NCBI RefSeq assembly: GCF_000354175.2
Contig: NC_022359.1
Location: forward strand, 960,001 to 992,000
From: Vibrio alginolyticus NBRC 15630 = ATCC 17749
GTDB taxonomy: Bacteria > Pseudomonadota > Gammaproteobacteria > Enterobacterales > Vibrionaceae
Reading direction: 5' to 3'
DNA length: 32,000 nt
Both the position numbers and the translations under genes were made by a program. Shown here piece after piece: positions 6,754 through 31,657 of the stretch; the stretch's first letter is position 1; the number at the start of each line of letters is the position of its first letter. The notes below the pieces were generated by a model. The model worked only from the letters and a program-made list of their open reading frames with translations, was not told the origin of the DNA and did not search any database.

Positions 6754-6837
6754 ACGCAGACCAAATCGTACTTGTAAGCCTTATCAGCTTAATTGTCACC
6801 GCAGCCATATTTACGATGTTGGTTGTGGAGAATTCAA

Positions 6838-8589: not shown

Positions 8590-8661
8590 CAAAACAACTT
8601 ATTCGGGTTGCGTTGTCACATTATTAAACGCGATCGAGAAAGATAACGAAGAGAATATAAG

Positions 8662-12700: not shown

Positions 12701-14531
12701 TCATCTCTCTATAACCGAAAACAGGGATAGCTTTAAAGCGTCAGGTGCATTTAATCAAATCTTCCCGATACAAACCATGTTGTTTGAACACCCAAATGAA
12801 ACGATGTTTGATAACTTTACCGAGTCATTTAACCCGCAGGGAAGTGAGTTAAAGAAAGATGAAATCGGCTATTGTCGAATACTTGTTCAGTCAGCTCGTT
12901 ATACTGAAAGTGATGAACCAGAATGGATGTCATATGATAGTTGGATTCAGCAATCTAGCAACAGTCGCCTAGGTCCATACGATAAAGTGAAAGTGCAGTT
13001 GATACTTAAAAAAGAACACAAGTATGCGAAGCCAGTTACGATTGGCTACGATCGCGTTGACGGGCTCGAAAATATTAAAGGCCCAGCTTTCAGTGACTGG
13101 ATGCTGCCAATGAAGGTTAGTGACTTCAAAACTGATCCTGATGGGCGAATAAGTGCTTTTTACAAGCAACAGGGGATTGATGACGGCGCTACGTTGATTG
13201 CTATTGAGCATATTCCCTCATTCCGCTTCGGTGATGTGATGATCGACGGTATGAAACCAATGACCTCTAAAGCAAAGCTAATGTTCTCTGATGCAATGTT
13301 CAGTATGGCAGTTTCCGGAGCAGCGATATCGGGTCAGCCAAGCGACTATTTTGCAGAAGCGGATTCCTTTAAGCGCTATGTAAAAGGCGGAGGCTTCCAA
13401 AATATGCGTTACTGCTTGGGAATTAGAACGAATCAAGGGCAACATAGTTTTTACTTACCACAAGAGTACAGTCTGGGGCAGAAGTTTGATGATGCTGAAG
13501 ATGAGTTGCAGATTGGCGCTTTAAGTACAGAAACTAGACTGGTTTTGCTTGATACCTACTTGGGAGAGCAGCAACTGCGTCTACGTGAACAGGACCTTAT
13601 GGTAGAGAGCTTTACCTTAATGGCAGGTGAGGGAGACAAAAATACCATCCCTATACTTCATGGCATTAAACAGCAATTGGTGGCTATAGACACCAAAGCG
13701 TCTGGTTTGAACTTTTTCAGTGAAAGAAAGTGGTACCAATCGGCTGATAATATCTGGCGTGATGGTTTCTCATGGGGAAACAAAAAGAAAGACGATCCTG
13801 CCAGTATTTATGTACTGATTTTGGGTGAAAGTCATGAAAAAGCACTTTATGAACGTTTGGGTATGCCGTGGGAAGCAGTGAATATGTGCATTCAACTGGC
13901 GCTCGACGGAAATGATGGCAAGCCAGTTAAAGGTCCTCTTTACTTCACCGATATGTATCATATTGGTGAGTTTGCCTATAAAAACGAAGAATGGATGTTT
14001 ACTGAATCTATTTCCGAAAACCATCGAGAACAAGTTGATGCCATGAGTGAGTTTATAGGTGAAGCTGTAGGTAGTCTCACTAAAGAGAATGAACTATCTA
14101 AGAGCAAAAACTATACGATGTACTGCATGAGGTTTAACTTGGAATATGTTGCACCAACGGGAGTTAGGTTAAAAGGTCTAAGACCGTTTGGTGGTGTAAT
14201 TGGTGGTAAAGCGAACTTGGAGCTTTCGGTTGCTCATCTAAAACAAGTCGGATTAAATGGAGCTGATGACTATGATATTGGTCGTGATGCTGTAATTTCT
14301 ATTCCTTCTTTAAATGCGGATAGTGCTTTGGCTGGTAATTTCTTTAGTGATATGCCTTGGTTAATTGAGAAAGAGTCGACAGAGGAAGGCGTAGACAAGT
14401 CTGCGGCTGAAACTTGGAAGCAGTATAACGAATCTCAACGCAAGAAATGGTTGAAAGATTGGATTGAGAAACAACCTGCGGTAACTCAAGCACCCAAGCC
14501 CTTGGAAAAGTCACTTGATAACCCTTCCTAG
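9786..14531 (+). CDS. 1581-aa leaderless protein with internal OmpA-like peptidoglycan-binding domain; candidate secreted co-effector or effector
   Basis: GTG start at 9786 with AAGGGG upstream and a 4-nt overlap with the upstream stop; the next in-frame Met is far downstream. No signal peptide. Residues ~600-722 (nt ~11580-11955) read LRVEIEGHACQVGTEKANMQVSAERAEYAKKLL...AAFGESKPV...NRRVVIRIY, which fits the OmpA_C-like pattern. The rest has no family I recognise. Confidence 0.6.
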   Translation: MSTHDTSNAIPLCANYYLFGVYYEGEFNSQTKTTEFPSWHSEESLVRKQIANIRPLAKVPMLNVTDSDSPKLWATDHKFKLCSLGNGKPDQYGAFEVLTPEHTIHALGRDLPKEGEQTFTFRFPPLPLIASLSELNPKELATKVAELSSQLENSEAKLTLTEVSIEQLAKPYEPAANGGLSEEQAEYNKWYEDVSESGETLKGFVLPVVASCAVVFSDQGYESATVTLQKFDSTKEGGEYKTIGSSVQAALPEDELSEENAKQYPCAMFHVDPADFKEGLYSIRVEFIPSQMKNGVPQFIKDAHIQQFSEGLDTVYTYELREQITFSSSTPLGKFAIVSGDMISLEESLIYQYPQYFGNMKHYLHGNVQGVTADTPASRSIALLKNIRDVSAQLGAGLLSGSLQDTLDRDGRQAVFNNVSKLYWDAVKSEMPPAMKAAGELYYGIYSTKEALDKLQELHTPTIAGVGWKALFHDKVFNTNEARSSALALSLESRLGNRRVVAGRVAEAWLSGGKTVGFNGFGTGLTALSLYKKAKQLVNQNKKVDKAEQGTEEVTKDYLAQIPVWKTANHIQEEKLEQALKDARDQSGNQIDAILVNSSRGAGIKIEFAFNSREKELKEHAPIFKQLAASLANVLENEPNLRVEIEGHACQVGTEKANMQVSAERAEYAKKLLMKEFPVFEGRVSVAAFGESKPVYVPKQGEKVDRNNLNLRQNRRVVIRIYLQSLNIFFHPSRYGSHAMERSRLALEAEMVAQDKAEVALRMAIFDSVVDVASYIPAIAPAARGFMLAIEGSKTAISAVKVIDSLMLDSFLEELKQSHEVVSELERLAKIHIELLNDLRRSKVDVGIECRSYQELITHLESEEVRKEVLKRYQLRALAINGLVLLLADLGSQTKRNSNISFRFLVERYKVKEYIENYILSDDWSVHTIKGNTLAANWKNRCDNEYYTELSTKMPQGAQHWPAPITTNSKVSHLSITENRDSFKASGAFNQIFPIQTMLFEHPNETMFDNFTESFNPQGSELKKDEIGYCRILVQSARYTESDEPEWMSYDSWIQQSSNSRLGPYDKVKVQLILKKEHKYAKPVTIGYDRVDGLENIKGPAFSDWMLPMKVSDFKTDPDGRISAFYKQQGIDDGATLIAIEHIPSFRFGDVMIDGMKPMTSKAKLMFSDAMFSMAVSGAAISGQPSDYFAEADSFKRYVKGGGFQNMRYCLGIRTNQGQHSFYLPQEYSLGQKFDDAEDELQIGALSTETRLVLLDTYLGEQQLRLREQDLMVESFTLMAGEGDKNTIPILHGIKQQLVAIDTKASGLNFFSERKWYQSADNIWRDGFSWGNKKKDDPASIYVLILGESHEKALYERLGMPWEAVNMCIQLALDGNDGKPVKGPLYFTDMYHIGEFAYKNEEWMFTESISENHREQVDAMSEFIGEAVGSLTKENELSKSKNYTMYCMRFNLEYVAPTGVRLKGLRPFGGVIGGKANLELSVAHLKQVGLNGADDYDIGRDAVISIPSLNADSALAGNFFSDMPWLIEKESTEEGVDKSAAETWKQYNESQRKKWLKDWIEKQPAVTQAPKPLEKSLDNPS

Positions 14532-14609: not shown

Positions 14610-16241
14610 TCAACCAGCTGCAGAAATGTCGTATTTCTTCATCTTGTGGTTGAGTGTGCTCATTGGCAGCGCCAATTGCTCAGCGGCCTTCTTGGTGTGC
14701 CAATTACACGCATTTAAGCAATCGATGATCACTGTACGCTCGTATTGGCTGACAACGTCCTTAAGGCTCTTTGAAACGTCTTCTAAATCCGCTTGTGCTT
14801 GCTGCTCGTAAGCAGGTTGCTCTGGGGTAGGTGAAGCTGCTTTCATGTCGATACTTGGTACATCTTCTGGGATTTGTTCGCCAAACTCAATGTGAGTAAT
14901 GGTTTCAAAATCGGACAGTAGCACCGAGCGCTCGATGATGTTCTTAAGCTCACGCACGTTCCCTGGGTATTGGTAGGCAAGCAGCTGTTTACGTACGTTG
15001 GCACTTAACCCTGGCGCTTGCGGCAGACCTAGCGTGTTGGTTGTGTGTTGCACGAAATGTTCGGCAAGGGGAATAATGTCTGACTTGCGAGCTCTCAATG
15101 GTGGTAATGTAATAGGGAACACATTCAAACGATAGAACAAATCGGCACGGAATCCGCCATCTTTGATTTGCTGCATAAGATTACAGTGGGTTGCGGCGAT
15201 AACGCGAACGTCCACCTCAATCTCTTTGCTGGTACCGATAGGGCGAACTTTGCGTTCTTGTAGTACACGCAGTAACTTTGCCTGCAGTAGCATTGGCATA
15301 TCGCCAATTTCATCTAGGAAAAGCGTGCCGCCGTTGGCTGCTTCAAACAAACCGACTTTGTCTTTGTCTGCGCCCGTAAATGAACCTTTCTTATGCCCAA
15401 AAAGCTCAGATTCCAATAACTGCTCTGGAATAGCCGCACAGTTCTGAACGATCAAAGGCTGTTCTGAACGATTAGAGTTTTCGTGAATGTATTTCGCGAT
15501 CACTTCTTTACCAGCGCCCGTTTCACCACGCAACAGAACGTCGACAGGAAGAGATAGCACCTTATCAAGACGATTCAAGACATTGAGCATTTCTTCGCTC
15601 TCTGCAATAGGACCTTGATAGGCTTTCTGGGTACGTTTTTTGAGCTGAGTGTTCTCGCGCACTAGGGCTTGATTGTCGGCATTGAGATTTTTTATTACTT
15701 GCCCGTATTGCTCTAACCACACAGCTTGGCGAATATTACTCGCGGCCATACGACAAAACTCAGTCAATGCAGCTTCATTGTCGATAACATTTAAATCGAG
15801 TAAGACTAACAGTCCAATGGTTTTGCTTTCGCTATCAATCAAAGGCCAAGCCAATAAGTTCTCGCTTTTTAATCCCAGTGTCTGCTCAGTTTGATAGATG
15901 CTTTCGCAGTCATAGCCGTTGTACTTATACAACTCGTTAATCAACACCACTTCACCATTACGAATGGCAAAGTTAAATGGGTCGTTCTCACTGGCTGAGT
16001 CTAACTGTAATGCTTCCCAAGGGTGGGAAACGATAGTTTTATCGTTATGGTGAGCGGTACTTGGAATCAACGCCTGCCCAGTCTGGTCCAAAACGTAAAT
16101 GATGCCGTGCTTTGCGAGGGTCATTTGTCTCGCAGCGGTCAACACAGCATCCAACGTTTGGGTAAGCTGGCTGCGATCAGCCAAAGACTGACTGATCGCA
16201 AGTAGGGCGTTACTAAGTTCGCTATGGTTAGCTGAACGCAT
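14610..16241 (-). CDS. Sigma54-dependent enhancer-binding transcriptional activator (GAF - AAA+ - Fis-type HTH), VasH-like T6SS regulator
   Basis: Walker A GETGAGKE, sigma54-contact loop GSFTGA, LFLDEIG Walker B region, a C-terminal HTH (AAEQLALPMSTLNHKMKKYDI) and an N-terminal GAF-like sensor region. Its start overlaps the clpV stop by 14 nt. Confidence 0.85.
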   Translation of the reverse strand: MRSANHSELSNALLAISQSLADRSQLTQTLDAVLTAARQMTLAKHGIIYVLDQTGQALIPSTAHHNDKTIVSHPWEALQLDSASENDPFNFAIRNGEVVLINELYKYNGYDCESIYQTEQTLGLKSENLLAWPLIDSESKTIGLLVLLDLNVIDNEAALTEFCRMAASNIRQAVWLEQYGQVIKNLNADNQALVRENTQLKKRTQKAYQGPIAESEEMLNVLNRLDKVLSLPVDVLLRGETGAGKEVIAKYIHENSNRSEQPLIVQNCAAIPEQLLESELFGHKKGSFTGADKDKVGLFEAANGGTLFLDEIGDMPMLLQAKLLRVLQERKVRPIGTSKEIEVDVRVIAATHCNLMQQIKDGGFRADLFYRLNVFPITLPPLRARKSDIIPLAEHFVQHTTNTLGLPQAPGLSANVRKQLLAYQYPGNVRELKNIIERSVLLSDFETITHIEFGEQIPEDVPSIDMKAASPTPEQPAYEQQAQADLEDVSKSLKDVVSQYERTVIIDCLNACNWHTKKAAEQLALPMSTLNHKMKKYDISAAG

Positions 16242-18912
16242 AGGTTAGTGTTCCTTGCTCATCGACAGACACTTCGATTTGCGTATGTGAATCATCCTTG
16301 TCATGCACTAATAGCTGAGTCGATAGTTGCGGCAGCAACTGACGGTTGATGACCGCGTCGATGTTACGCGCGCCCGTTTCAGCAAGGCGACAGTTACCTA
16401 GTACGAACTCAACCAAGCTTTCTTCGTAGCTCAGAGACAACTTGTGATGACTCTGTAGACGCTGAGAAACTTTGTTCAGCTTGTGGTGAATAATTTCTGT
16501 CATTGCTTCATCAGACAGCGGAACAAATGGTAGTACTGACATACGTGCCAACAGCGCCGGCTTGAAGTGTTGGTTCAAAGTAGGGCGAATAGCTTCTGCG
16601 ATGATGTTTGCATCGATGTCTTTGGATTGATGAACCAAAGATTCGATCTCATGCGTCGCAAGGTTACTGGTCATGATGATCAGCGTGTTCTTGAAGTCGA
16701 TTGTGCGGCCTTCGCCGTCGTTCAGCGTGCCTTTGTCGAACACTTGGTAGAACAGGTTCAACACTTCAGGGTCGGCTTTTTCCACTTCATCAAGAAGAAC
16801 AACAGAATATGGACGTTGACGAACCGCTTCTGTCAGCATGCCGCCTTCACCGTAACCTACGTAACCCGGAGGAGAACCGATTAGGCGAGATACCGTGTGC
16901 TTCTCTTGGAACTCAGACATGTTAATGGTCGTCATAAAGCGCTCACCACCAAACATTTGATCAGCGATCGCACGAGCCGTTTCGGTTTTACCCACGCCAC
17001 TTGGGCCAACCAGCAGGAATACGCCTGTTGGTGCGTCTGGGTTACCTAGACCAGCTTTCGCAGTTTGAATGCCTTCAGACAGTGCATCGATAGCGTATTC
17101 TTGGCCTTTGATGCTTTGTGTTAGGCTTTCTTTCAGTTTTAGCGTGGTTTCTGCTTCGTCTTGAAGCATCTTACCCATTGGAATACCAGTCCAGTCCGAG
17201 ATGACGTGGCTAACTTCATCTGGGCCCACTTCAAAGTGAACCAGTGGGTTGCCATTGCGGATTACATCTAGCTGTTCTTGGCAGGCCGAAATGGCAATGC
17301 GAACGGCTTCTTCATCCATTTCTGCATATGGAGAAACGTCTTGCTCTTGTTCTGAATCTTCGTCTGCAACAAGCTCTTCTTCATTTGTTTCTCCAAAGAC
17401 CAGTTCATGTAAGCGAGAGCGTAGAGCAATCATCTCTTGGATCTGCTCTTTTTCTTTGTGCCATTGCGCTTCTTGTTCTGCTAGCTCTTCTTTCGTTGTT
17501 TCCATTGCCAGTTTTAGGTCTGGAATGTTAGCAAGGCTGTGCTTGTCGCCAGTTTGCTGCAGAGCATCACGCTCAAGTGCTTCAAGCTCGCGCTGTTGAG
17601 CTGCAAGTTCTTGTTGCAGAGTCTCAACAGAAGCAGGAATGGCATTAAGGCTGATGTTCACTCGTGCACACGCCGTATCTAGTACATCGATCGCTTTGTC
17701 TGGCAGTTGACGACCAGAGATGTAACGAGCAGAAAGTGCTGCCGCAGCAGTGATAGCATCGTCACGCACGTAAACGTTATGTGACTTCTCGTATGCTGGG
17801 CGCAGACCACGAATGATCAATGCTGCTTGCTCAGGAGACGGTTCGTCGAGTTTCACCAATTGGAAACGACGCGCAAGAGCAGGATCTTTCTCGAAGTACT
17901 TCTTGTATTCCGACCATGTTGTCGCAGCGATGGTTTTCACTTCACCACGCGCTAGGGCTGGTTTTAGCAAGTTTGCCGCGTCGCTGCCGCCCGCTTGGTT
18001 ACCACCGCCAACAAGGGTGTGTGCTTCATCGATGAAAAGAATGATAGGGGTTGGCGAGTTTTTCACTTCATCCAATACTGCGTTTAGGCGTTTTTCGAAT
18101 TCGCCTTTTACGCTTGCACCAGCTTGCAGAAGACCCATGTCCAGGCCGTAAAGCTCAACACCTTTGAGGTTGTCTGGTACGTCACCTTGTACAATCTTAA
18201 GTGCCAAGCCTTCTACTACTGCGGTTTTACCAACGCCCGGTTCACCAACAGCAATAGGGTTGTTTTTACGGCGACGAGCAAGAATGTCCACGATTTGGCG
18301 GATTTCTTGGTCACGGCAGAAAACAGGATCGATTTCGCCTTTGCGTGCTTTACCAGTGAAGTCTGTCGTGAACTTGCTCAGTGCTGAGCCATCCTCACGA
18401 GCTTGTGTTTTCTCTGAATTAGCAACTTGCGCCTCAATAGAGTGGCTTGTTAGTTCTGCAAAGTTACGCTTAAGGCTGTCAGGATTTACCGCCTCAAGGA
18501 TAGAGGCATAACCATGTTGGCCGTAACGGAGAGGATTGCTAACAAGAGTAAGGAGCAGGGCGCCAGAGCGGATTTGTGTTTCGGATAGATCTAAAGAAGA
18601 AACCAGCCAGCTTTCTTGCAACCATTCGATTAATAAAGCAGAAAAAACAGGTTTGCTGCCATTTCCTTTGGCGTTGGTGTCGAGTGTGGATCGAACCGAT
18701 TGTCTTAATAAGTTCTCAGAACAATCAAAATGACTTAATAAGACGTCAAAATCACTATTTGGCCTTTCTAATAGACTCAGTAAATAATGCTCAATTTGAA
18801 CTTCGTTTGCTTTTTCAGAGACTGCAAGTGCAGCGGCGTCTTCTAATGCTACTTTTGCAATCGGGTGTAGACGCTGAATTAATGAAGAAAGGTTTATATT
18901 TATCATAGCCAT
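16228..18912 (-). CDS. clpV: T6SS AAA+ ATPase ClpV (TssH)
   Basis: 894 aa with a Clp N-domain and two AAA+ modules (Walker A GEPGVGKT and GPSGVGKT) separated by a coiled-coil middle region. It lies within a T6SS cluster. Confidence 0.95.
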
Positions 18913-19362: not shown

Positions 19363-19881
19363 ATGCCAACTCCAGCATATATGTCTATCCAAGGTGAGAC
19401 TCAAGGCCATATTACTAAAGATACTTACTCTGCAGATTCAGTAGGTAACACATGGCAAGAAGCTCACGTTGATGAGTTCCTAGTACAAGAACTTGATCAC
19501 GTGCTAACTGTTCCACGTGATCCACAAAGTGGTCAGCCAACTGGTCAACGTGTACACCGTCCACTTGTTGTAACTAAAGTTCAAGATCGCTCATCTCCAC
19601 TACTATTCAACGCACTAGTATCTGGCGAAAAACTTCCTGAGTGTGTGATCCGCTTCTACCGTACTTCAGTTCAAGGTAAACAAGAGCACTACTACTCAAT
19701 CAAATTGATTGATGCGCTACTTGTCGATATCCAAACTCGTATGAACCACTGTCAAGACGCAGCAACAGCTGACCGCGTGACAGAAGAAGTGCTTAAGTTC
19801 ACTTACCGTGCGATCGAAGTAACTCACGAAAACTGTGGTACTGCGGGTAACGACGACTGGCGTGCTCCACGCGAAGCTTAA
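19363..19881 (+). CDS. hcp: T6SS inner tube protein Hcp (TssD)
   Basis: 172 aa. MPTPAYMSIQGETQGHIT...DPQSGQPTGQRVH...WYRTS-like...GTAGNDDWRAPREA aligns along its length with Vibrio cholerae Hcp as I remember it. Confidence 0.97.
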   Translation: MPTPAYMSIQGETQGHITKDTYSADSVGNTWQEAHVDEFLVQELDHVLTVPRDPQSGQPTGQRVHRPLVVTKVQDRSSPLLFNALVSGEKLPECVIRFYRTSVQGKQEHYYSIKLIDALLVDIQTRMNHCQDAATADRVTEEVLKFTYRAIEVTHENCGTAGNDDWRAPREA

Positions 19882-22034: not shown

Positions 22035-22517
22035 ATGGAAAAACAACCTCTTACAACAGAAGTAATATCAGAGCAGCAAGCCGAATCAACGGCTTGCTTT
22101 TCGCGTTTTGGAAGAATAGTGGCTATCAATGAGTCTACGGGCAGTGTGCGAGTTGATTTTGATGGTAACCCATTTAATCAGCCACTCACTGCGAGACTAG
22201 GACGTGGCTTTCGTCGTTCTGAGCTGCAAATGGCTATCGATAATCGATTAAGTTGTCGAGTTGAATTTTTGAACGACGACTTAAGCTTGCCTCTTGTGAC
22301 GGACATTTTCTTCTCCATTCTGGATGACTCTGACGAGTTTGTATTGCGAGCGAAGAAGATGGTTATCGAGACAGAACAAGAGTTGGTAGTCAAAAGTGGT
22401 GAGACAGAAACTCGCTATAGCGGGCGCGATGGACGAATTACCACTAAAGCGAAGTACGTCACCTCTCAAGCAGAAAAAGCACAAAAAATTCAAGGCGGAA
22501 CGATCGCAATTAACTAA
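22035..22517 (+). CDS. 160-aa VgrG-adjacent protein with a VgrG-like C-terminal tail; function unknown
   Basis: It starts 2 nt after the vgrG stop. The last ~44 aa (LVVKSGETETRYSGRDGRITTK...KIQGGTIAIN) align with the last ~43 aa of VgrG (IVLKTGGSSLVMNSDGSIKLSG...VVKGGNVVVN). No PAAR motif was seen. Confidence 0.5.
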   Translation: MEKQPLTTEVISEQQAESTACFSRFGRIVAINESTGSVRVDFDGNPFNQPLTARLGRGFRRSELQMAIDNRLSCRVEFLNDDLSLPLVTDIFFSILDDSDEFVLRAKKMVIETEQELVVKSGETETRYSGRDGRITTKAKYVTSQAEKAQKIQGGTIAIN

Positions 22518-22577
22518 TTACCTAGCATTAGCTAATTTACGTCGAGTTAGCTAATTACTTTGTATTAACTAATTGCA
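22508..22577. repeat. Four phased copies of TTA[AG]CTAATT (palindromic core TTAGCTAA), iteron/operator-like array
   Basis: Cores at 22510-22519, 22528-22537, 22547-22556 and 22565-22574, spaced 18, 19 and 18 bp, with non-conserved spacers. The first copy overlaps the stop codon of the 160-aa gene. Confidence 0.6.
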
Positions 22578-22611
22578 ATCGCGTTATGGCACGCTAATAA
22601 CGGATAACTAG

Positions 22612-23931
22612 ATGCGACAAAGAATCGGTGTCGAGCACCTAAAGGCACCCATAACCAATCAAGAAGTCGAAGGCGCGTTAGCAAAAGCTGAGCGCGCTGT
22701 GAACGACCTTTCCCAATTGCCAGTAACATGGCTGGATTTCTGTAATGAAAAGCTGTCCATTGCTTCTGAAAGTATCGGTTTTTTAATCAGGCAGCGAGTT
22801 CAAATTCACAAAAGGGGTTATCCAAGTCGTGAGTTGGCGTATCTCAAGCTGATTGAACGCCAAATTGAAGAACTGAAGCAGGTGTACTTGTCGTTTTATC
22901 GCTTAGCACCGGGGTTGATTCATCAATTAAGAGACCAGGAGCCAGAAATCTACAGCTGGCTGATGCTACAGGGCGAGTTGGGCTCAGAGTTGGATAACCT
23001 TTTGTGCGGATTGAGTTTACTCGAAGATATTGACACTAAAACTGCAATGGTCGTTGCCGTGCAATCTTCGGTTGAATCTATGGATAGCACGCTTTCGGAG
23101 CTTATTGAGGGTAATGCGACATCCAGTGCGTTTTACTTTGAATGCTTACGTGTACGTCAAACATTAAGTGTTTCTCTCATCAAGCGCTGGCACAATGTCA
23201 GCATCATCAGCTCTCAAGTTGCTTTGCCACTGCTCGCTTTACAAGACGTAAAAGAGGGGATTGATTGGCTTAATGACAATGCAGGCAGCGAACAATACCT
23301 ATTTGAACGTTTGATTACCAAACGTGACAGAGGCACTTGGTTCCGTCAGAGCTTTGGCATCGAACCAAATAGATTACCATCAGCGCAAGTGCTTACTTAT
23401 GCCAAGTTGCTTGAGTTAAAAGAGTTTGAGGCGTTTGATATCTCTTCTTCATTAGCACCTGTTGATTTTGCGCTGAGTGGCGATTGGAAACTGGTGCCCC
23501 AAATCATCGAGCACTTGGAAAGTCTGGAGGAAGCTGAAGGTGAAGTTTGGCTTCAAGCCTTGTATGTCGTCTACGGAAAGCTTCTTCCTCTGAATCCGCA
23601 AGATGTTGGTGTCGAGTATGAATGGGAAGAGATCGTCGATCTGCTCAATGAGTGGGTGGAAGATGAAAAATATATGCAAAATCTACCAAGCCGCTTGGGT
23701 TACGCATTGAGCTTCGAGTCTACGTTAGCTGCGATGCAAGATTCTAACGTTGATGTGCTGTTCCGCGACTGGCTATGGCGCCAAATCTGCATTCAATCCA
23801 GAGCCTACGTGCCTTGGGATATGGCGATGCCGATTCATCAACAAGACTGGAACTTCAACAATTTAAAGGCCGCACCTTCTGCGAGCGAACGATTCAACTT
23901 AAGGAATAGCAATGCAGTTATGGGATATTGA
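22612..23931 (+). CDS. Hypothetical 439-aa, apparently helical protein in the vgrG cassette
   Basis: ORF with codon usage that looks consistent with its neighbours. Its 3' end overlaps the next gene by 20 nt. No signal peptide, TM segment or motif I recognise. The Shine-Dalgarno sequence is weak. Confidence 0.55.
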   Translation: MRQRIGVEHLKAPITNQEVEGALAKAERAVNDLSQLPVTWLDFCNEKLSIASESIGFLIRQRVQIHKRGYPSRELAYLKLIERQIEELKQVYLSFYRLAPGLIHQLRDQEPEIYSWLMLQGELGSELDNLLCGLSLLEDIDTKTAMVVAVQSSVESMDSTLSELIEGNATSSAFYFECLRVRQTLSVSLIKRWHNVSIISSQVALPLLALQDVKEGIDWLNDNAGSEQYLFERLITKRDRGTWFRQSFGIEPNRLPSAQVLTYAKLLELKEFEAFDISSSLAPVDFALSGDWKLVPQIIEHLESLEEAEGEVWLQALYVVYGKLLPLNPQDVGVEYEWEEIVDLLNEWVEDEKYMQNLPSRLGYALSFESTLAAMQDSNVDVLFRDWLWRQICIQSRAYVPWDMAMPIHQQDWNFNNLKAAPSASERFNLRNSNAVMGY

Positions 23932-24904
23932 AGCGCACCCTGAGCTATCACTTAAAGGTCGTTTTCAACGTGACGAAAACGGCGATGAAGTGTGGGTTGT
24001 TGTCGCCAAACGCACATGGCAATTCGATGGTGTGGTTTGGCACGAATTAGGTGAAAGTGAAATCTTCGATGATCCCCAATATTTGGGCGAAGAAGGCTTC
24101 TCTGCGATGAAAGTTGACCACGAATTCGCGTATACCAAAGACAACACAGATGTACTTGTTTACGGCAAAGCGCGCAGCTACGCGAAAAAGCCAGTGACAT
24201 ACCAAGAATGTCGTGTGTTGATTGATGGTCATATCGATAAGACTCTCGCTATTCACGGGGAGCGCGTATGGGTTGAGCATGCTGGCAGTATCACGCTGAG
24301 CAATCCAGTCCCATTTATTGAAAAAGACATTGATTACACTTGCGCGGTAGGCGGTGATTTACGTAACCGAATAGGTGGTGGGGTTGCCTACTCCAACAAA
24401 GAATTGCTTGAACAGAAAGTACCCTCGATTTTTTATCCCCGAGAGGACTGGAGTGCCGCCGCGAAAAAACTACGCGTTGCGGGGTTCGGGCCAGTGCCTC
24501 CGTTCTTTGAGTCGCGCCAGAAGCTGGCCGGCACGTTCGATGACGATTGGATTGAGAATCGCAAGCCAATGTTGCCACTCGATTTTGATAAGCGGTTCTT
24601 CCAAAGCGCGCCTATTGATCAACAGTGCAAAGGCTTCCTTCATGGAGGGGAGCGTTTGATGATGAGTGGCTTTTGTCATGATGACACGCTTTCATTTCGA
24701 ATTCCTAAAGAAAAATACCGTGCGATCGCGACGTTCAAAGATCAAAGTTATCAAGCTGATATGGCGATGTACACCTTATTCGTTGATGCGGAAAAGAAAA
24801 CTATATCAATCAGTTACACCGCTGCGTTTCCTTGTCAGGGCAAGGAGCATTTGTTGGTGTCGACATCCATCACTAAGTTGGAAGAGGTAAGCGAGCATGC
24901 ATAA
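23912..24904 (+). CDS. DUF2169-like T6SS accessory (putative effector-loading adaptor)
   Basis: The N-terminus (DENGDEVWVVVAKRTWQFDG...DDPQYLGEEG...DHEFAYTKDNTDVLVYGKA...KTLAIHGERVW) matches the DUF2169 pattern as I remember it (D..G.e.vvvvK.Tf....dG; D.y.G; K..tDVl..G.A; v.G.R.W). It sits downstream of vgrG, as is typical for this family. Confidence 0.65.
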   Translation: MQLWDIEAHPELSLKGRFQRDENGDEVWVVVAKRTWQFDGVVWHELGESEIFDDPQYLGEEGFSAMKVDHEFAYTKDNTDVLVYGKARSYAKKPVTYQECRVLIDGHIDKTLAIHGERVWVEHAGSITLSNPVPFIEKDIDYTCAVGGDLRNRIGGGVAYSNKELLEQKVPSIFYPREDWSAAAKKLRVAGFGPVPPFFESRQKLAGTFDDDWIENRKPMLPLDFDKRFFQSAPIDQQCKGFLHGGERLMMSGFCHDDTLSFRIPKEKYRAIATFKDQSYQADMAMYTLFVDAEKKTISISYTAAFPCQGKEHLLVSTSITKLEEVSEHA

Positions 24905-25841
24905 TTCAACAGGCCGTTACGTGCTAGGGATGGAAGTGATGACGCCAACCGGTATGAATTTAGATATTGCTAGTGCAGTTTCGTATGCTGACTTAGGAAG
25001 ATTCGACCAATGTGTAGGGGATGATGGTATCGAGCGTTTTACTTACGCCAAAATCGAATACACCAAAGAAAGTGAGCAGTTTGAGAAAACGTGTGAGTTA
25101 ATCACCCACTTGCTTGATTCATTGTTAGCACAGTTACCACGTTCATTGAGACCAATACCTTTGCTTATAGCGGTGCCTGCGTCTGTTTCACTAGTAAAGG
25201 TGCAAGAATGGCTTGGTGAAAGTAACTATGCTGAATTTCTCTCTGTGGTGAATGCTGTTCATGCCAGTGGGCCCAGTTTCGTTCTCCAGGCCATGAAATC
25301 ATTGGATAAATATGATGCTATGATGTGTATCAGTGTCGATTCCTTGGTGAGTTCGATGCAAACACTCATCGACGATGCGATGGTAATGAGTACCAATAAT
25401 CCATGGGGCGTTATTCCGAGTGAGGGTGGGGCGGGTTTAATTCTTTGTCGAAGAAATACCGTAGAAACATTGAAACTTAAGCCTCAAGCGCAGCTTGGCT
25501 ACATTGATACGGAATTAAACACTTCAGACCGAAGAGGCATGTTTCGACTTGTTCAACGTGCGAGTAAAAAGCTCGATTCATTTGGTGAAGTGTATTCCGA
25601 TATGACGAACCTGCGCATGCATTCGGAAGATTACGGCTTTGCTCTGGGGGCGAAAGCAGAACGATTCACGAACCCAGAACAACCGCAGCTTATCAATGAG
25701 TTGTGGGGCACAATGGGCAGTTGTTCTTCTCTCGCTTTAATTGCCTTTGCGGTCAGAGAGCACCACTTTAAGCAACCAACTACGTTGTTAATGTTCGACT
25801 TTCATGGTGACAAAGGAGTTCTCCAATTACTGCAATGTTAG
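24897..25841 (+). CDS. Thiolase-fold / beta-ketoacyl-ACP-synthase-like protein lacking the Cys-His-His triad (pseudoenzyme candidate)
   Basis: 8-nt overlap with the upstream gene. By-eye alignment to E. coli FabF gave these correspondences: RYVLGMEVMTPTG ~ RVVVTGLGMLSPVG; VHASG replaces ACTSG (active-site Cys); GVIPSEGGAGLIL ~ GFVLGDGAGMLVL; SDMT replaces AHGT; GTMGSCSS replaces GHLLGAAG; FDFHGDKGVL ~ FGFGGTNGSL. Confidence 0.5.
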   Translation: MHNSTGRYVLGMEVMTPTGMNLDIASAVSYADLGRFDQCVGDDGIERFTYAKIEYTKESEQFEKTCELITHLLDSLLAQLPRSLRPIPLLIAVPASVSLVKVQEWLGESNYAEFLSVVNAVHASGPSFVLQAMKSLDKYDAMMCISVDSLVSSMQTLIDDAMVMSTNNPWGVIPSEGGAGLILCRRNTVETLKLKPQAQLGYIDTELNTSDRRGMFRLVQRASKKLDSFGEVYSDMTNLRMHSEDYGFALGAKAERFTNPEQPQLINELWGTMGSCSSLALIAFAVREHHFKQPTTLLMFDFHGDKGVLQLLQC

Positions 25842-26010: not shown

Positions 26011-26040
26011 TTGATACAAGTACGTTCAAGAAAATATTAT
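26011..26040 (+). promoter_or_regulatory. Candidate sigma70 promoter TTGATA-N18-TATTAT upstream of the kinase/tssA-tssC genes
   Basis: TTGATA at 26011-26016 and TATTAT at 26035-26040, in an AT-rich 237-bp gap about 40 nt upstream of the GTG start. Motif match only. Confidence 0.3.
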
Positions 26041-26078: not shown

Positions 26079-28079
26079 GTGTCTAATAATCAGAGTACAG
26101 CCAAAGGATATATCGATCAGTTGGTTGTTAAAGCTATTGAGAAAAAGAAACTGAATGAGCAAAGGCTAGCAGAAAAAAATAAGCCGAAGCTTGAGTACGT
26201 GCTTTTTTCACAGTTTGATGTATTAGACAAGCTTCCTTCTAAAAATGGTAAGACAACGGTTTACCATCTTGCAAAAAAAGGGCAGCCAGAGAAGCAAATC
26301 TGTTGCAAAGTTATCAATGATGACTCGCCAGAATTTGCGAGCAAAATGTTGATTAACGAAGCGAGCAGGCTGGAGCTTTCTCAACACCCTAGCGTGGCTA
26401 ACTTTGTAAAAATCGGCAACGAATTCGAACGCCCATATTTGATGTACGAGTGGATCCAAGGTGAATCACTGGCAGAAAAAATGGAGCGTCATTCTTCTAA
26501 AGGCTTCCGCCACGACCACATCGCTTGGTTGGTGTATCAACTCGCTGGCGCTCTAGAGTTTATGCATACAAGAGGTATCTGCCATCTTGATATCAAACCA
26601 TCAAATGTTTTGGTTAGCGAAGGCGATTACGTTAAGCTCATTGATTTCGGCGCTGCTCGTTACATTGGAGAGACAGAACCTTACGCAGAAGCAAGCTTGA
26701 GCTACGCTTCCCCTCTTTATATAGAAACTGGCATCGCGGAACCGCAAGATGATGTTTACTCTCTCGCTTTGCTCGCTGGACATCTATTTTTAGGATCAAT
26801 ATTTGGTGATGCTTGGAATAAGCAGTTAGAAGACCGAAAGCGTCCGGCTTTGATCCCGGTTCATATTTGGAAATTGCTGAAAGAAGTCATCAACAAACCA
26901 AGAGGGCATGGCTATACCGCTATTTCTTTTGCTCAACAGTTAGCGCGAATCGATACGCAATCAATTAGCTCAAATTCTAACGCACCAATTTTCAGTAGCT
27001 TGCGTAACGCGGACTTGCTGCTTACACACTGTAAGCCAAATGATAAAACGGCGTATGGTCGCTTTAAAATATTAGAGGCGAGCTTAGTGTTGAGTGTGCT
27101 GGCAACAGCAGGAAGTTATTTATATCAACAGAATAAAGATCAATTGGATGCTATTTTTTCCCAAGGTGTCACTACTATAACTCACGTTATTACGCCCTCT
27201 GAAACGGCTTCTTTTTTGGCTCAGCCTCCATGGAAAATCAAAGAAGAATTGTCTCAAGCTACTCAGAGTATTGATATGACAGAAGCTTATCGAACAGCAT
27301 ATCAAGCTCAGCAGTTAAGCCTCTCGAATTTATATGAAGAAAAACAGGCTCAGTTAACGTCGTATCAATCGTTAGCGGATGGCTTACCAATGGCATTAGT
27401 CGAATTACGTAAGGAGCTTGTCACCTTGCGAGAAACCCTTGTTCGTGACGGTGCTCTGTTTCCATATGCGGATGAGGCGTTGACTAAAGTGATGTCTGGG
27501 TTAAATGTCGCGTCTATCGATTCCATGAAAGTATCTGCCATAGCTGGCAGTCGAGATAAGCAGATTGCTCGTTTAATTTTAGATGGTGAAGCTAAGCTCG
27601 CAGAAAATGAAATGAAAGAGGCATGGTTATTAAACCAGTCACAAGCCTATTTCTACAACCAAATCTTACCAAAGGCTGTGATGGAAAATATTAATGACTC
27701 CATCGATAAACATGCAGAGGCGCACTTTTACACCAAAGCAATTGAAGAAGCTGAATTAGCCAAAGCCTACTTCGGTAATACGCCAGAACTAGACAAAAAA
27801 ATAAAGGATTTAATCGTCGCAAGAAGCGAATTTATTTTGTTTAGCACCGTGATGGAGCAATCCGTTTACGACAAACAAAAGCTACATGAATCCCTTGCCG
27901 ATTTAGAACGGAATGCACCAAGCAAATTTACAGAAATCACGAAAATTCTAGATAGCATGGCGTCGGATGCGATAGAGCAGAGCCATCGGTTATCTAAGCC
28001 AGCAAATGGCGCAATTGCGGTAGCGCGTGCGTTGAGAGATTACTTGACTGAAGGAGACGTGAATTTTGTCCAACATTGA
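26079..28079 (+). CDS. Membrane-spanning Hanks-type Ser/Thr protein kinase (PpkA/TagE-like) with a helical extracytoplasmic C-terminal domain
   Basis: GTG start. Catalytic loop HLDIKPSNVLV, DFGAAR, and a conserved Lys context ICCKVI. One hydrophobic segment ILEASLVLSVLATAGSYLY (nt ~27066-27125) is followed by about 310 aa of helical sequence. The gene is encoded immediately upstream of tssA. Confidence 0.8.
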   Translation: MSNNQSTAKGYIDQLVVKAIEKKKLNEQRLAEKNKPKLEYVLFSQFDVLDKLPSKNGKTTVYHLAKKGQPEKQICCKVINDDSPEFASKMLINEASRLELSQHPSVANFVKIGNEFERPYLMYEWIQGESLAEKMERHSSKGFRHDHIAWLVYQLAGALEFMHTRGICHLDIKPSNVLVSEGDYVKLIDFGAARYIGETEPYAEASLSYASPLYIETGIAEPQDDVYSLALLAGHLFLGSIFGDAWNKQLEDRKRPALIPVHIWKLLKEVINKPRGHGYTAISFAQQLARIDTQSISSNSNAPIFSSLRNADLLLTHCKPNDKTAYGRFKILEASLVLSVLATAGSYLYQQNKDQLDAIFSQGVTTITHVITPSETASFLAQPPWKIKEELSQATQSIDMTEAYRTAYQAQQLSLSNLYEEKQAQLTSYQSLADGLPMALVELRKELVTLRETLVRDGALFPYADEALTKVMSGLNVASIDSMKVSAIAGSRDKQIARLILDGEAKLAENEMKEAWLLNQSQAYFYNQILPKAVMENINDSIDKHAEAHFYTKAIEEAELAKAYFGNTPELDKKIKDLIVARSEFILFSTVMEQSVYDKQKLHESLADLERNAPSKFTEITKILDSMASDAIEQSHRLSKPANGAIAVARALRDYLTEGDVNFVQH

Positions 28080-29640
28080 TATCGATCGTCTGCTTAATCC
28101 TATTTCTGATGAATCTCCAGTGGGAAACGATGCCCGTTACGAGTTTTGCTACGAGATGATGGAATCTGAAGTAAAGAAATTCGGTTCCTTGTTTGGCGAA
28201 ACAGTAGATTGGAGCGTGGTAAAAACGCACGCGACTGAAGTTCTAGAGCACCACAGTAAAGACTTAAAAGCCATTTGTTACCTCGTTCGCGCGCTAACAG
28301 AAGAGTTTGGTCTGCAAGGCTTTGAACAAGGTCTAAAGCTGCTTAGTGAGGCGTTAAGTCGCTTTGGCGTTGAATTGTATCCTTCGCGAAAGCGGGGTCG
28401 AGATGGCGCGGTTGAATGGTTGAACCATCAGTTTAAACTGGTCAGTAGCAAGTTAGCGGAAAGCGCTCAGTCATGGGATTTGGTATCAAACTGCATTTCG
28501 ACTATTGAAGAAGTGCAGCGCCAGTACGACGAGGTTTACCAAGACTCAGAAGCGGATTTCTTTGAGATTCGCACTCAACTCAATGTCTTATCTCAACAAG
28601 CGGTGGCTGATGAGCAGAGCTATGATGCAGTCGTTAACGTCGAACAAGCGGCGCCTGCACCAGCTACGCAGCCTGCTGCCGCAGAAACGCCAGCGCAGAG
28701 TGAAGTGCAAACCGCACCGGTGAAGGCGGTTCCGCCGGCCCCTAAACCTGCGCCAGTTAAGAAAGCGGTAGCAAAAGAAGTCGATGTCGATACGGACTTC
28801 TCTTCGCCTACGGCTTCTAAGCGCACCTTGAAGAAGGTGGCGGAAGTCATGCTTCATGCGAACCCAAGTGATCCGCTGGCTTACCGGATTTATCGTCATC
28901 TGACTTGGGATGACATTGATGGTCTACCCGACCACCAAAACAATCAAACGCCTTTGAGCTTGGCAGTGTCGTCCGATCAACAAGCGGAATACCGAGATAA
29001 AGCTGACCAAGAAAGCGACATCGACACGATTAAGCGTTTGGAGCGCACATTAACGGATGCGCCGTTTTGGCTGACGGGCCATTACTTCGTGTATTCGATG
29101 CTTAATAACTTGGGCTTTGATGATGCAGCGCTTGCTGTGAAACAAGAAGTGACGCGTTTTGTTGAATCGCTAGAGGGCATCGAGCACCTCTCATTTAAGA
29201 ATTCTATACCATTTGCAGATGAAGCGACCTTGAGCTGGTTATCGACTCAAGATACTACTTCTTCGACTTCTCAACCCGTTGTTCAAACGGTTGTGATTTC
29301 GCAGGAAGACTCGCTGCCAATGGAGGATATCACTCTAGAAAATCTAGGGGAATGTGCCGCAGAGCTTGCCCACAAACTTGAGCTGGATAGCTCGGGACGT
29401 GGGCAGTTCATGCTGTATTTACAATTGATAGCAGCTTACCAGTCTGTTGGATTATACCCGTTGTGTTTGCCGTATCTTGAGAAGGGGTGGGAAGTACAAA
29501 AAGCGTTTAATCTCGCGAACTGGGAACCCCACTTATCGTCACAGTTAGAAGACCTAATTCGAAAAACACTCCATCGGTTATTTGGAAGCAAGGATCTTCT
29601 ACCTGAGAAGTATGAAGAGTGGAAAGCAATTTACGACTAA
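28066..29640 (+). CDS. tssA: T6SS protein TssA (ImpA_N family, VasJ-like)
   Basis: TTG start with a strong AAGGAG 8 nt upstream, overlapping the kinase gene by 14 nt. The N-terminus LLNPISDESPVGNDARYEFCYEMMESEV is the ImpA_N signature. It has a central Ala/Pro-rich linker and lies directly upstream of tssB. Confidence 0.85.
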   Translation: MSNIDIDRLLNPISDESPVGNDARYEFCYEMMESEVKKFGSLFGETVDWSVVKTHATEVLEHHSKDLKAICYLVRALTEEFGLQGFEQGLKLLSEALSRFGVELYPSRKRGRDGAVEWLNHQFKLVSSKLAESAQSWDLVSNCISTIEEVQRQYDEVYQDSEADFFEIRTQLNVLSQQAVADEQSYDAVVNVEQAAPAPATQPAAAETPAQSEVQTAPVKAVPPAPKPAPVKKAVAKEVDVDTDFSSPTASKRTLKKVAEVMLHANPSDPLAYRIYRHLTWDDIDGLPDHQNNQTPLSLAVSSDQQAEYRDKADQESDIDTIKRLERTLTDAPFWLTGHYFVYSMLNNLGFDDAALAVKQEVTRFVESLEGIEHLSFKNSIPFADEATLSWLSTQDTTSSTSQPVVQTVVISQEDSLPMEDITLENLGECAAELAHKLELDSSGRGQFMLYLQLIAAYQSVGLYPLCLPYLEKGWEVQKAFNLANWEPHLSSQLEDLIRKTLHRLFGSKDLLPEKYEEWKAIYD

Positions 29641-29666
29641 TTAAAGAGTTAGATAAGGAACGAATT

Positions 29667-30173
29667 ATGTCACGTGACGGCTCGGTGGCTCCTAAAGAGC
29701 GAATTAATATCCGTTATGTTCCAGCAACTGGCGATACGCAAGAAGACGTAGAGCTGCCGCTAAGCATGATGGTAGTTGGCGACTTTACTGCGCGTGCAGA
29801 TGAGACACCAATTGAAGAACGTACTCCAATTAACATCGACAAAGACAACTTTAACGAAGTGCTAGAGGGCATGTCTCCAAACGTTAAAGTCAACGTTGAA
29901 AACCGTCTTTCTGATGAAGAAGGCGGCCAGATAGGTGTTGATCTGACCTTCCAAAACATGAAGGACTTCTCTCCTGAAGCGATCGCGAAAAGTGTACCTG
30001 AACTAAACAGCCTACTTGAGCTTCGCGAAGCCTTGGTTGCACTGAAAGGTCCTCTAGGAAACGTTCCTGCGTTCCGTAAGAAGATCGCATCGGTTCTTCA
30101 AGATGAAGAAGCGAGAAAGAAACTGTTGGATGAACTAAGCATTGGCAACGACCAAGACGCGAAAGAAGAGTAA
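29667..30173 (+). CDS. tssB: T6SS contractile sheath small subunit TssB (VipA)
   Basis: I prefer the ATG at 29667 (AAGGAA upstream) over the 29619 start in the track. MSRDGSVAPKERINIRYVPATGD...VELPLSMMVVGDF is the canonical TssB N-terminus. 168 aa. Confidence 0.95.
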   Translation: MSRDGSVAPKERINIRYVPATGDTQEDVELPLSMMVVGDFTARADETPIEERTPINIDKDNFNEVLEGMSPNVKVNVENRLSDEEGGQIGVDLTFQNMKDFSPEAIAKSVPELNSLLELREALVALKGPLGNVPAFRKKIASVLQDEEARKKLLDELSIGNDQDAKEE

Positions 30174-30181
30174 GGGATATC

Positions 30182-31657
30182 ATGTCTGCAGAAGCACAAG
30201 CGCCAGAACAAGAAGCAGCCTTAGTTGAATCAGGTTCACTTCTGGATAGCATTCTTAACGAAACACGTTTAAAGCCAAGTGATGAAGGTTTTGACGTTGC
30301 AAAGCGCGGCGTAGAAGCATTCATCAGTGAGCTACTAAGCAGTTCGAACACAGAGAAAGTCGACCAATCTCTGGTTGATCTGATGATCTCTGAAATCGAC
30401 CAAAAATTGTCTAAGCAAGTTGATGCAATTCTTCACAACGAAGAAGTTCAAGCGATTGAATCAACGTGGCGTGGCCTTAAGTACCTGGTTGATCACACTG
30501 ACTTCCGCGAGAACATTCAAATCGAACTGATCTCTGCGAAGAAAGACGAAGTTCTTGATGACTTCGAAGACGCGCCAGAGGTGGTGAAGTCTGGCCTGTA
30601 CAAGCAGATCTACACACGTGAATACGGCCAGTTCGGTGGTAAACCTGTTGGCGCCGTCATTTGTGATTACGCTATGTCAGCTTCGTCGCCTGACATCAAA
30701 TTGATGGAATACATGGCTAACGTAGGTGCAATGTCTCACGCACCATTCATCACGTCGGCATCGGCTAAATTCTTTGGTCTAGACAGCTACGAAGAGCTGC
30801 CAAACCTAAAAGATCTGAAGTCTGTATTCGAAGGTCCACAGTACGCGAAATGGCGTGGTCTGCGTGAGCACGAAGATGCGCGCTACCTAGGTCTATGTAC
30901 GTCTCGCTTTATGCTACGTACGCCTTACTCTGTTGAAGATAACCCAATCAAGGCGTTTGACTACGATGAGCAAGTCACAGACAGCCATGATAACTACCTA
31001 TGGGGCAACTCAGCGTACGCGATGGCGTCTAAGATCAGTGAATCATTTGCTAAGTACCGTTGGTGTCCGAACATTATTGGTCCTCAAAGCGGTGGTACTG
31101 TACAAGATCTACCGGTTTACAACTTTGAAGCTATGGGTCAAATCGAGACTAAGATCCCAACCGAGATCCTGGTTTCTGACCGTCGTGAGTACGAGCTAGC
31201 GGAAGAAGGCTTCATTGCGCTAACCATGCGTAAAGGTTCTGACAATGCGGCGTTCTTCTCTGCAAACTCTGTTCAAAAACCAAAAGTGTTTGCGAACACG
31301 CCTGAAGGCAAACAAGCCGAGATGAACTACAAGCTAGGTACGCAGCTTCCTTACATGTTCATTATCAACCGTTTAGCGCACTACATAAAAGTGCTACAGC
31401 GTGAGCAAATTGGTTCTTGGAAAGAGCGTTCTGACCTAGAAATCGAATTGAACAAGTGGATCCGTCAATACGTTTCTGACCAGGAGAACCCGCCAGCGGA
31501 AGTCCGTGGTCGTCGTCCACTTCGCGCTGCGAAGGTAGAGGTATCAGACGTAGAAGGCGATCCAGGTTGGTACAAAGTATCGATGTCTGTACGTCCTCAC
31601 TTCAAGTACATGGGCGCAAGCTTCGACTTGTCTCTAGTTGGTAAGCTAGACCAATAA
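30182..31657 (+). CDS. tssC: T6SS contractile sheath large subunit TssC (VipB)
   Basis: 491 aa, immediately downstream of tssB. Conserved segments include WRGLKYLV, YGQFGGKP, ANVGAMSHAPFI and RPHFKYMGA. Confidence 0.95.
   Translation: MSAEAQAPEQEAALVESGSLLDSILNETRLKPSDEGFDVAKRGVEAFISELLSSSNTEKVDQSLVDLMISEIDQKLSKQVDAILHNEEVQAIESTWRGLKYLVDHTDFRENIQIELISAKKDEVLDDFEDAPEVVKSGLYKQIYTREYGQFGGKPVGAVICDYAMSASSPDIKLMEYMANVGAMSHAPFITSASAKFFGLDSYEELPNLKDLKSVFEGPQYAKWRGLREHEDARYLGLCTSRFMLRTPYSVEDNPIKAFDYDEQVTDSHDNYLWGNSAYAMASKISESFAKYRWCPNIIGPQSGGTVQDLPVYNFEAMGQIETKIPTEILVSDRREYELAEEGFIALTMRKGSDNAAFFSANSVQKPKVFANTPEGKQAEMNYKLGTQLPYMFIINRLAHYIKVLQREQIGSWKERSDLEIELNKWIRQYVSDQENPPAEVRGRRPLRAAKVEVSDVEGDPGWYKVSMSVRPHFKYMGASFDLSLVGKLDQ

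Follow-up and report, generated by a model that had tools for sequence, protein, structure and literature searches.

The 32,000-nucleotide (nt) stretch of DNA analysed here (hereafter, the window; positions 960,001–992,000 of contig NC_022359.1 of Vibrio alginolyticus NBRC 15630 = ATCC 17749) is a Vibrio T6SS1-type cluster, encoding a type VI secretion system (T6SS). Its vgrG gene encodes the sole spike protein of the cluster, the platform onto which the PAAR-like tip domain (PIPY, DUF4150) of an effector is loaded. Directly 3' of vgrG (stop at 22032) lies a cassette of four genes, the first of which starts at 22035. The genes (Table 1) encode: (i) a 160-amino acid (aa) protein of the DUF6484/TvpC type (gene 1), (ii) a 439-aa all-alpha protein (gene 2), (iii) a 330-aa DUF2169/TvpA protein (gene 3) and (iv) a 314-aa protein of the PRK06147/TvpD type (gene 4). 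This cassette is not novel: it is an already described set, the DUF2169 "synteny type A" or Class II Tvp system, and it very probably acts as the module that builds the VgrG-PIPY spike tip of the Vibrio T6SS1-type system.

The cassette was singled out in an initial annotation, made from the sequence alone, which described four tightly packed genes after vgrG. Their coordinates proved correct, as did the junctions, which are a 2-nt gap between vgrG and gene 1, a 94-nt gap between genes 1 and 2, a 20-nt overlap of genes 2 and 3 and an 8-nt overlap of genes 3 and 4. The four open reading frames (ORFs) are real genes and not chance ORFs, since the order hcp-vgrG-gene 1-gene 2-gene 3-gene 4-ppkA-tssA is kept in six distant Vibrionaceae loci (Enterovibrio nigricans, V. 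azureus, an unclassified Vibrio group (L043), V. ostreicida, Vibrio sp. ZSDE26 and a marine metagenome scaffold), with protein identities of 40–65%. The 20-nt overlap of genes 2 and 3 is retained in all six.

The product of gene 3 matches Pfam DUF2169 with E = 2e-73 (residues 24–302 of 330) and aligns over residues 1–325 (E = 1e-151) with PDB entry 8VTH, a crystal structure and the only solved structure of a DUF2169 protein; the label "DUF2169-like" given to it at the outset is thus confirmed. It is a single-domain protein with no pentapeptide-repeat extension. In the alignment with 8VTH, residues F209, W213 and F225 of gene 3, all of them present in VP1398 of V. parahaemolyticus, match the positions of the residues mutagenised in that protein; the VP1398 substitutions F209A and W213A abolish binding of the PIPY domain, and F225A retains it (Sachar et al., 2025, PMC11883445). 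The partner of VP1398 is VP1415's PIPY domain, and secretion of VgrG1, sheath assembly and killing all depend on VP1398 (PMC11883445). Gene 3 is the orthologue of VP1398 and would bind a PIPY domain.

Two further DUF2169 loci may be mentioned. In the complete chromosome AP023188.1 of a conspecific strain (L004:3729-4723), a 2-nt insertion in a G run splits the DUF2169 gene into ORFs of 249 and 81 aa, so that this is a natural null allele of T6SS1 or else a sequencing error in the homopolymer. A DUF2169 match in Proteus mirabilis (L037) belongs to a type B locus and not to the pef operon.

Gene 4, a PRK06147-type gene directly downstream of DUF2169, overlaps gene 3 by 8 nt. Its match with NCBIfam PRK06147 (E = 3e-7) is below the cut-off, and its hhalign comparison with the PRK06147 protein of Ralstonia is modest (E = 8e-5). 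The AlphaFold2 model of the protein (predicted local distance difference test score, pLDDT, 90.5; predicted template modelling score, pTM, 0.91) was matched by Foldseek with beta-ketoacyl synthases (KAS) I/II and a polyketide chain-length factor (E = 2e-13, template modelling score, TM, 0.73, 9–14% identity). Gene 4 therefore shares the thiolase fold of these proteins (1TQY, 2GFV), and a structural survey likewise described the fold of VP1399 as thiolase-like (PMC10734457). It differs from them in being ~100 residues shorter, in lacking the Cys nucleophile and the conserved His pair, and in having no link to fatty-acid or polyketide genes.

This fold, with a TM of 0.73, and several invariant residues, including an EGGAG-like motif, R212, R213, E244 and N267, could be taken as favouring an active enzyme of the acyl-transfer or condensing type, whose substrate would be a lipid, an effector or part of the spike. 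Such an activity is nevertheless extremely unlikely. Not a single column of Cys or His is invariant across 27 homologues, so that the invariant Cys and the His-His or His-Asn pair of active KAS I/II/III are missing. The expected nucleophile position, mapped by motif and secondary structure and not by superposition to H122, three residues before the conserved G125 in a strand-helix elbow, is occupied by His in 21, Gln in four, Asn in one and Ser in one of the homologues. In this it resembles the non-catalytic chain-length factor, itself among the top structural matches. The protein also falls ~100 residues below the length of a real KAS enzyme, and no KAS was found when PDB was searched by sequence, either with the protein (phmmer) or with the family profile (hmmsearch). 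The description of gene 4 in the initial annotation as "catalytically dead KAS-like" is therefore supported both by the Foldseek fold match and by the missing conserved Cys/His. Gene 4 is the orthologue of VP1399, and is predicted to serve as a co-chaperone of the PIPY domain.

Gene 1 alone matches Pfam DUF6484 with E = 1.3e-4, under the gathering score, while all seven of its orthologues examined match this family (best E = 5.9e-8). When a profile of the orthologues was compared by hhalign with the DUF6484 protein of a Ralstonia locus, residues 76–160 were aligned with 95% probability (E = 2.6e-8), i.e., the two proteins are homologous over the full C-terminal half, and the alignment extends to a common C-terminal ...GGx[IV]x[IL]N end. 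Residues 26–89 form an OB-fold-like region, and the DUF6484 model also touches the OB-fold region of the VgrG of the window. A VgrG-like tail had been claimed for this protein; it is real but weak. Over their last 45 residues, gene 1 and VgrG can be aligned from end to end; the z-score in the window is 3.6, and in four other species none of 300 shuffles reached the observed score of this tail-restricted alignment, while a BLASTP comparison of gene 1 with VgrG gave no significant match. Searches of PDB sequences (phmmer/hmmsearch) returned nothing meaningful for gene 1. Gene 1 is thus a mini-VgrG, whose short C-terminal tail mimics the VgrG tip.

The 94-nt spacer between genes 1 and 2 holds the repeat array reported by the initial annotation, namely four copies of TTA[AG]CTAATT at 22510, 22528, 22547 and 22565, spaced by 18–19 nt and with no further copy in the window. 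The first copy includes the stop codon of gene 1, and the units look like tandem duplications of the stop-codon region. For the spacer, a hairpin that is long and imperfect is predicted (-29.3 kcal/mol, z = -2.2). Only the species of the window has the repeat, and one strain of this species (L002) has a 111-nt variant. In five of six other Vibrionaceae loci the spacer has 20–46 nt and no repeat, and in the sixth, a metagenome scaffold in which the start of gene 2 is possibly mis-called, it has 305 nt, again with no repeat. The spacer is a species-specific trait and probably not part of the mechanism.

Sets of genes corresponding to the cassette have been described in several studies. PRK06147 genes adjoin DUF2169 in 74% of cases, and PRK06147 was proposed as an adaptor (Liu et al., 2020, PMC7714669). 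In the definition given by Sachar et al. (2025, PMC11883445), "synteny type A" comprises vgrG, DUF6484, DUF2169, a thiolase-like gene, an armadillo-like protein and a DUF4150 "PIPY" effector; these authors assigned the T6SS1 of V. parahaemolyticus to it. The components DUF6484, DUF2169 and PRK06147 were subsequently named TvpC, TvpA and TvpD, respectively, with VP1395 and VP1399 explicitly placed in Class II (Monlezun et al., 2026, PMC13373197). Of the features of type A, the position next to vgrG, DUF6484, the single-domain DUF2169 and the downstream PRK06147-like gene are all found in the window. The view of the initial annotation that a DUF2169 protein combined with a KAS-like pseudoenzyme has no described mechanism is therefore not upheld, as the combination is published (PMC7714669, PMC11883445, PMC13373197).

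The closest described counterpart is found in V. parahaemolyticus RIMD 2210633, where vp1395, vp1396-7, vp1398 and vp1399, together with VP1415, have the same order and sizes. The flanks are also the same, with hcp-vgrG upstream, ppkA-tssA-tssB-tssC downstream and the PIPY gene directly after tssL. The homologues of genes 2 and 4 (P0006 and P0125) share 85–87% identity with them (87% for gene 2), and the DNA identity between the V. parahaemolyticus loci and those of the V. alginolyticus type is ~75% over tssM and the tagA-like gene. The two differ in the spacer between genes 1 and 2, which in the V. alginolyticus type carries the species-specific repeat, and in the PIPY effector, whose C-terminal half is not the same; in the V. 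alginolyticus type, the next gene after the effector encodes a 739-aa protein of no family.

Another counterpart, PA0095-PA0099 of Pseudomonas aeruginosa (VgrG1b, TvpC PA0096, TvpA PA0097, TvpD PA0098 and Tse7; Monlezun et al., 2026, PMC13373197), has the same vgrG-DUF6484-DUF2169-PRK06147 series with a DUF4150-tipped client. Compared with this Class II set, (i) the window has the 439-aa helical gene inserted between TvpC and TvpA, (ii) the Vibrio client effector lies ~20 kb away instead of being adjacent, and (iii) the cluster has one VgrG, and its module is predicted to be essential for firing. A matching gene order was also found on a Ralstonia solanacearum megaplasmid (L038, CP047139.1), with vgrG, DUF6484 (E = 7e-13), DUF2169, PRK06147 (E = 1.8e-59) and DUF4150. 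In this locus DUF4150 is followed by a GHH2 toxin, and a TIGR02270/HEAT protein is encoded downstream of the toxin and immunity genes. No TIGR02270 protein is detectable in the Vibrio cluster, in contrast to Ralstonia.

The effector carrying the PIPY domain is not encoded in the window. Its initial annotation reported no PAAR gene, and this was confirmed: a hidden Markov model (HMM) built from 109 PIPY N-terminal domains (control matches: E = 1e-83 for Vibrio, 2e-19 for Ralstonia and 5e-4 for Proteus) found nothing better than E = 3.1 in the six-frame translation of the window. Pfam scans, covering the annotated window genes except tssB and tssC, detected neither PF05488 (PAAR) nor PF13665 (DUF4150) in the cassette proteins, Hcp, VgrG, PpkA, TssA or the products of all upstream genes. 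The intergenic ORFs of the window are AT-rich junk.

A homologue search and contig look-ups located the PIPY gene further downstream. Four conspecific contigs, 98.5–98.7% identical to the window, continue after tssC with tssE, tssF, tssG, a gene for an asnC-type regulator, tssM, the tagA-like gene, a 199-aa gene and fha. At the tail, each of them overlaps two other contigs (L034 and L035), with 99.4–99.6% identity over 6.1 kb, and the latter continue with tssJ, tssK and tssL. Directly after tssL, a 485-aa protein is encoded, which matches PF13665 (Tox-PAAR-like = DUF4150; E = 1.6e-35) and contains the motif KPVVPIPYGN; the cluster of this protein is named by one source as a DUF4150 protein of V. 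alginolyticus. In window-equivalent coordinates the gene starts at ~45.5 kb, i.e., ~13.5 kb beyond the window end and ~19.7 kb after the stop of gene 4. The cognate DUF4150/PIPY gene of type A is thus found by way of conspecific strains, in the same cluster as the cassette and probably in a different operon. What emerges is essentially a characterised adaptor set with its PAAR-type gene elsewhere, after tssL of the same cluster, an outcome that the initial annotation itself had named as speaking against its proposal.

A PIPY gene after tssL was also found in V. diabolicus, in V. parahaemolyticus and in 11 of 25 species-representative loci, the remaining loci having no PIPY gene within 10 kb; the PIPY effector of V. 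coralliilyticus is an orphan amid housekeeping genes. Separation of the tip gene from the chaperone cassette is therefore the rule in Vibrio T6SS1-type clusters: the PIPY gene lies ~20 kb off or is an orphan elsewhere in the genome. It follows that the lack of an adjacent PAAR gene does not speak for a new tip, and the seeming lack of one here is an artefact of the window end.

These results bear on the first of two readings offered by the initial annotation, in which one of the unassigned proteins, gene 1 or gene 2, would be a new secreted spike-tip or cargo component in place of PAAR. The window with no PAAR-like gene, and the OB-fold-like region and VgrG-like C-terminus of gene 1, could be taken in its favour, yet the reading is highly improbable, as the cluster does contain a genuine gene for a PIPY tip. 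Moreover, the PIPY effector VP1415 is essential for T6SS1 killing in V. parahaemolyticus (PMC11883445, PMC12826047), and TvpC of Serratia forms a pre-complex in which it is then replaced by VgrG, so that it is absent from the final complex (PMC13373197). Gene 2, for its part, is a large alpha-solenoid-like protein, unlike any known tip.

The PIPY effectors themselves are variable. Only the first ~150 residues of the 485-aa effector are common to it and the 505-aa effector of V. parahaemolyticus and V. diabolicus, and its C-terminal half has no Pfam match (L034:10001-14919). The proteins encoded after it (739, 203 and 176 aa) match neither Pfam nor NCBIfam, and together with the effector they may represent an undescribed toxin/immunity set. 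In V. parahaemolyticus and V. diabolicus, a 256-aa protein is encoded downstream of the PIPY gene for the 505-aa effector (L030:11531-16795; L005:16401-18256), and a weak AHH-nuclease hint was obtained for it in V. diabolicus. After this gene, several Imm11-like genes stand one behind another and resemble an immunity-gene array made up of duplicates or orphans. In several species, including V. harveyi, Vibrio sp. M260121, V. bivalvicida and V. crassostreae, a second PIPY-domain ORF was found after tssL, 3–4 kb downstream of the first (loci L007, L008 and L011-L014, at ~18.2–19.8 kb in each), which points to polymorphic PIPY effectors arranged in tandem and sharing a single accessory cassette.

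Taking the gene content of the cassette together with the published systems, the following mechanism can be proposed for the tip-building module. Gene 3 would grip the hydrophobic N-terminal PIPY domain (DUF4150, PAAR-like) of the effector encoded at the far end of the cluster, with the pseudoenzyme encoded by gene 4 acting together with it to shield the PIPY cone. A trimer of gene 1 would serve as a surrogate VgrG tip, on which the PIPY cone is pre-assembled. The VgrG trimer would then displace gene 1, the chaperones remaining in the cell, and the loaded VgrG-PIPY spike would nucleate T6SS assembly and license firing. The steps of pre-complex formation and hand-over are modelled on experiments with Serratia and on AlphaFold predictions for the set of P. 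aeruginosa (PMC13373197), and what genes 1, 2 and 4 would do in Vibrio is likewise a prediction. Because the cluster has a single VgrG, the module would be needed for firing of the whole system, i.e., it would have a core function and not that of a cargo-specific adaptor, a prediction which matches the vp1398 deletion phenotype in V. parahaemolyticus.

Several observations weigh against the assignment of the cassette to Class II and the mechanism derived from it. By itself, gene 1 is below the Pfam gathering threshold, and the Class II model, as published, does not accommodate gene 2. The evidence for the PIPY gene comes from conspecific strains, the window's own strain being covered only to 32 kb. 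The experimental support (DUF2169-PIPY binding and the requirement for DUF2169) comes from the sister species V. parahaemolyticus. Finally, when T6SS1-defective insertions were recovered in a transposon screen of V. parahaemolyticus, none lay in vp1395 or vp1396-7, from which the authors of the screen inferred that these genes are non-essential (Ben-Yaakov and Salomon, 2019, PMC6618117); this sits badly with an obligatory TvpC pre-complex, the saturation of the screen being unreported in PMC6618117.

The only genuine remaining puzzle of the cassette is gene 2, which is strictly syntenic and has no family, structural neighbour or assigned role. The initial annotation called its product a helical protein of unknown family, and this description stands. 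The AlphaFold2 model (pLDDT 91.9, pTM 0.88) is all-alpha and solenoid-like, with 25 helices. Family searches gave no Pfam or NCBIfam match, sequence searches of PDB (phmmer/hmmsearch) no match, and Foldseek comparison of the model with PDB only noise-level matches with solenoids of the ARM, HEAT and TPR types (best E = 0.21). When 1.84 billion representative proteins were searched with a profile of 22 homologues, just 31 clusters were retrieved, and all matches with an organism name are from Vibrionaceae (Vibrio, Photobacterium and Thaumasiovibrio). In V. parahaemolyticus, VP1396 and VP1397 form one ORF, vp1396-7 (PMC6618117), which corresponds to gene 2. Among conspecific strains, gene 2 is the least conserved of the four genes (97.0% versus 98.5–99.7%).

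The armadillo/HEAT accessory of the TIGR02270 type, listed for type A by Sachar et al., was not found here. The UniRef name of one gene 2 homologue (P0103) hinted at membership of TIGR02270, and this candidate was rejected, as NCBIfam scans of 22 members were negative. Neither TIGR02270 nor HEAT or ARM models matched gene 2 or its 22 homologues at E <= 1, hhalign comparison of gene 2 with the Ralstonia TIGR02270 protein gave a probability of 0.6%, and no TIGR02270 protein was detected by NCBIfam among the other scanned uncharacterised proteins of the cluster. TIGR02270 proteins harvested by tblastn from plasmids were nearly all from Ralstonia and too uniform for a better profile. The location differs as well, as gene 2 is placed between TvpC and TvpA and not downstream of a toxin like the Ralstonia protein.

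Because of its strictly conserved position and the 20-nt overlap with gene 3, gene 2 most likely encodes an extra scaffold or chaperone of the module, and it may be a functional analogue of the TIGR02270/HEAT accessory. A more specific proposal, for which we see somewhat less support than doubt, is that gene 2 is a Vibrionaceae-restricted fifth subunit of spike-tip assembly, an alpha-solenoid scaffold that replaces the TIGR02270/HEAT protein in its role. It might, for example, hold the TvpC-TvpA-TvpD-PIPY pre-complex together or time the hand-over to VgrG. If so, such a subunit would allow a single fixed cassette to be used for several PIPY effectors that are polymorphic and dispersed.

That gene 2 has no assigned function also leaves room for the second reading of the initial annotation, in which the cassette, or gene 2, would be the adaptor that loads the upstream MIX/OmpA binary effector module (6.8–14.5 kb). 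The orthologous VP1388/VP1390 pair co-precipitates with VgrG1, and a review (PMC12826047) names no dedicated adaptor for it. The same review, however, describes VP1388/VP1390 as a self-contained binary module; DUF2169 binds PIPY directly, and its loss abolishes all T6SS1 activity instead of affecting one cargo (PMC11883445). In addition, the Ralstonia DUF6484-DUF2169-PRK06147 set adjoins DUF4150 and a GHH2 toxin and no MIX module, and vp1396-7 was not recovered in the killing screen (PMC6618117). We therefore consider it very unlikely that the cassette loads the distal MIX/OmpA cargo. In sum, what was retained from the earlier interpretation is a VgrG-linked accessory or adaptor set, with DUF2169 accompanying a PAAR-like gene, a KAS-like pseudoenzyme and a VgrG-like gene 1, while both readings built on it were abandoned. 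With the cassette and its logic already published, the case is useful mainly as a caution on missing adjacent PAAR genes.

The remaining features of the window are listed together with the cassette in Table 1.

Table 1. Features of the 32,000-nt window of V. alginolyticus NBRC 15630 = ATCC 17749 (coordinates relative to the first letter of the window).
Feature	Position	Strand	Remarks
Large immunoglobulin (Ig)-repeat protein	8-6070	+	Window feature
Block of three genes: 598, 375 and 1581 aa (1581 aa, OmpA domain)	6793-14531	+	
Sigma-54 activator	14610-16241	-	
clpV	16228-18912	-	
hcp	19363-19881	+	
vgrG, 698 aa	19936-22032	+	TIGR03361 (E = 3e-200); Pfam Phage_GPD, Phage_base_V, Gp5_trimer_C
Gene 1, 160 aa, DUF6484/TvpC type	22035-22517	+	Orthologue of VP1395
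Spacer between genes 1 and 2, 94 nt, repeat array	22518-22611	+	
Gene 2, 439 aa, all-alpha	22612-23931	+	Orthologue of VP1396-7
Gene 3, 330 aa, DUF2169/TvpA	23912-24904	+	Orthologue of VP1398
Gene 4, 314 aa, PRK06147/TvpD type	24897-25841	+	Orthologue of VP1399
Ser/Thr kinase, ppkA type	26079-28079	+	
tssA, tssB, tssC	28066-31657	+	

Promoter-like sites across the region are overall not above chance. One sigma-70-like match (10/12) at 26011–26040, inside the 238-nt gap before the kinase gene, is consistent with the internal operon, vp1400-1406, that V. parahaemolyticus is reported to have. For tssA, two ORFs were called in the contig of Enterovibrio nigricans (L039:11335-12942), one of 150 aa (ImpA_N) and one of 368 aa (VasJ), which suggests a frameshift or a genuine split. 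At the other end of the window, the Ig-like repeat ORF encodes more than 2020 aa and continues past the 5' end, and its GC content rises from ~0.41 to ~0.53 (at 3–6 kb).

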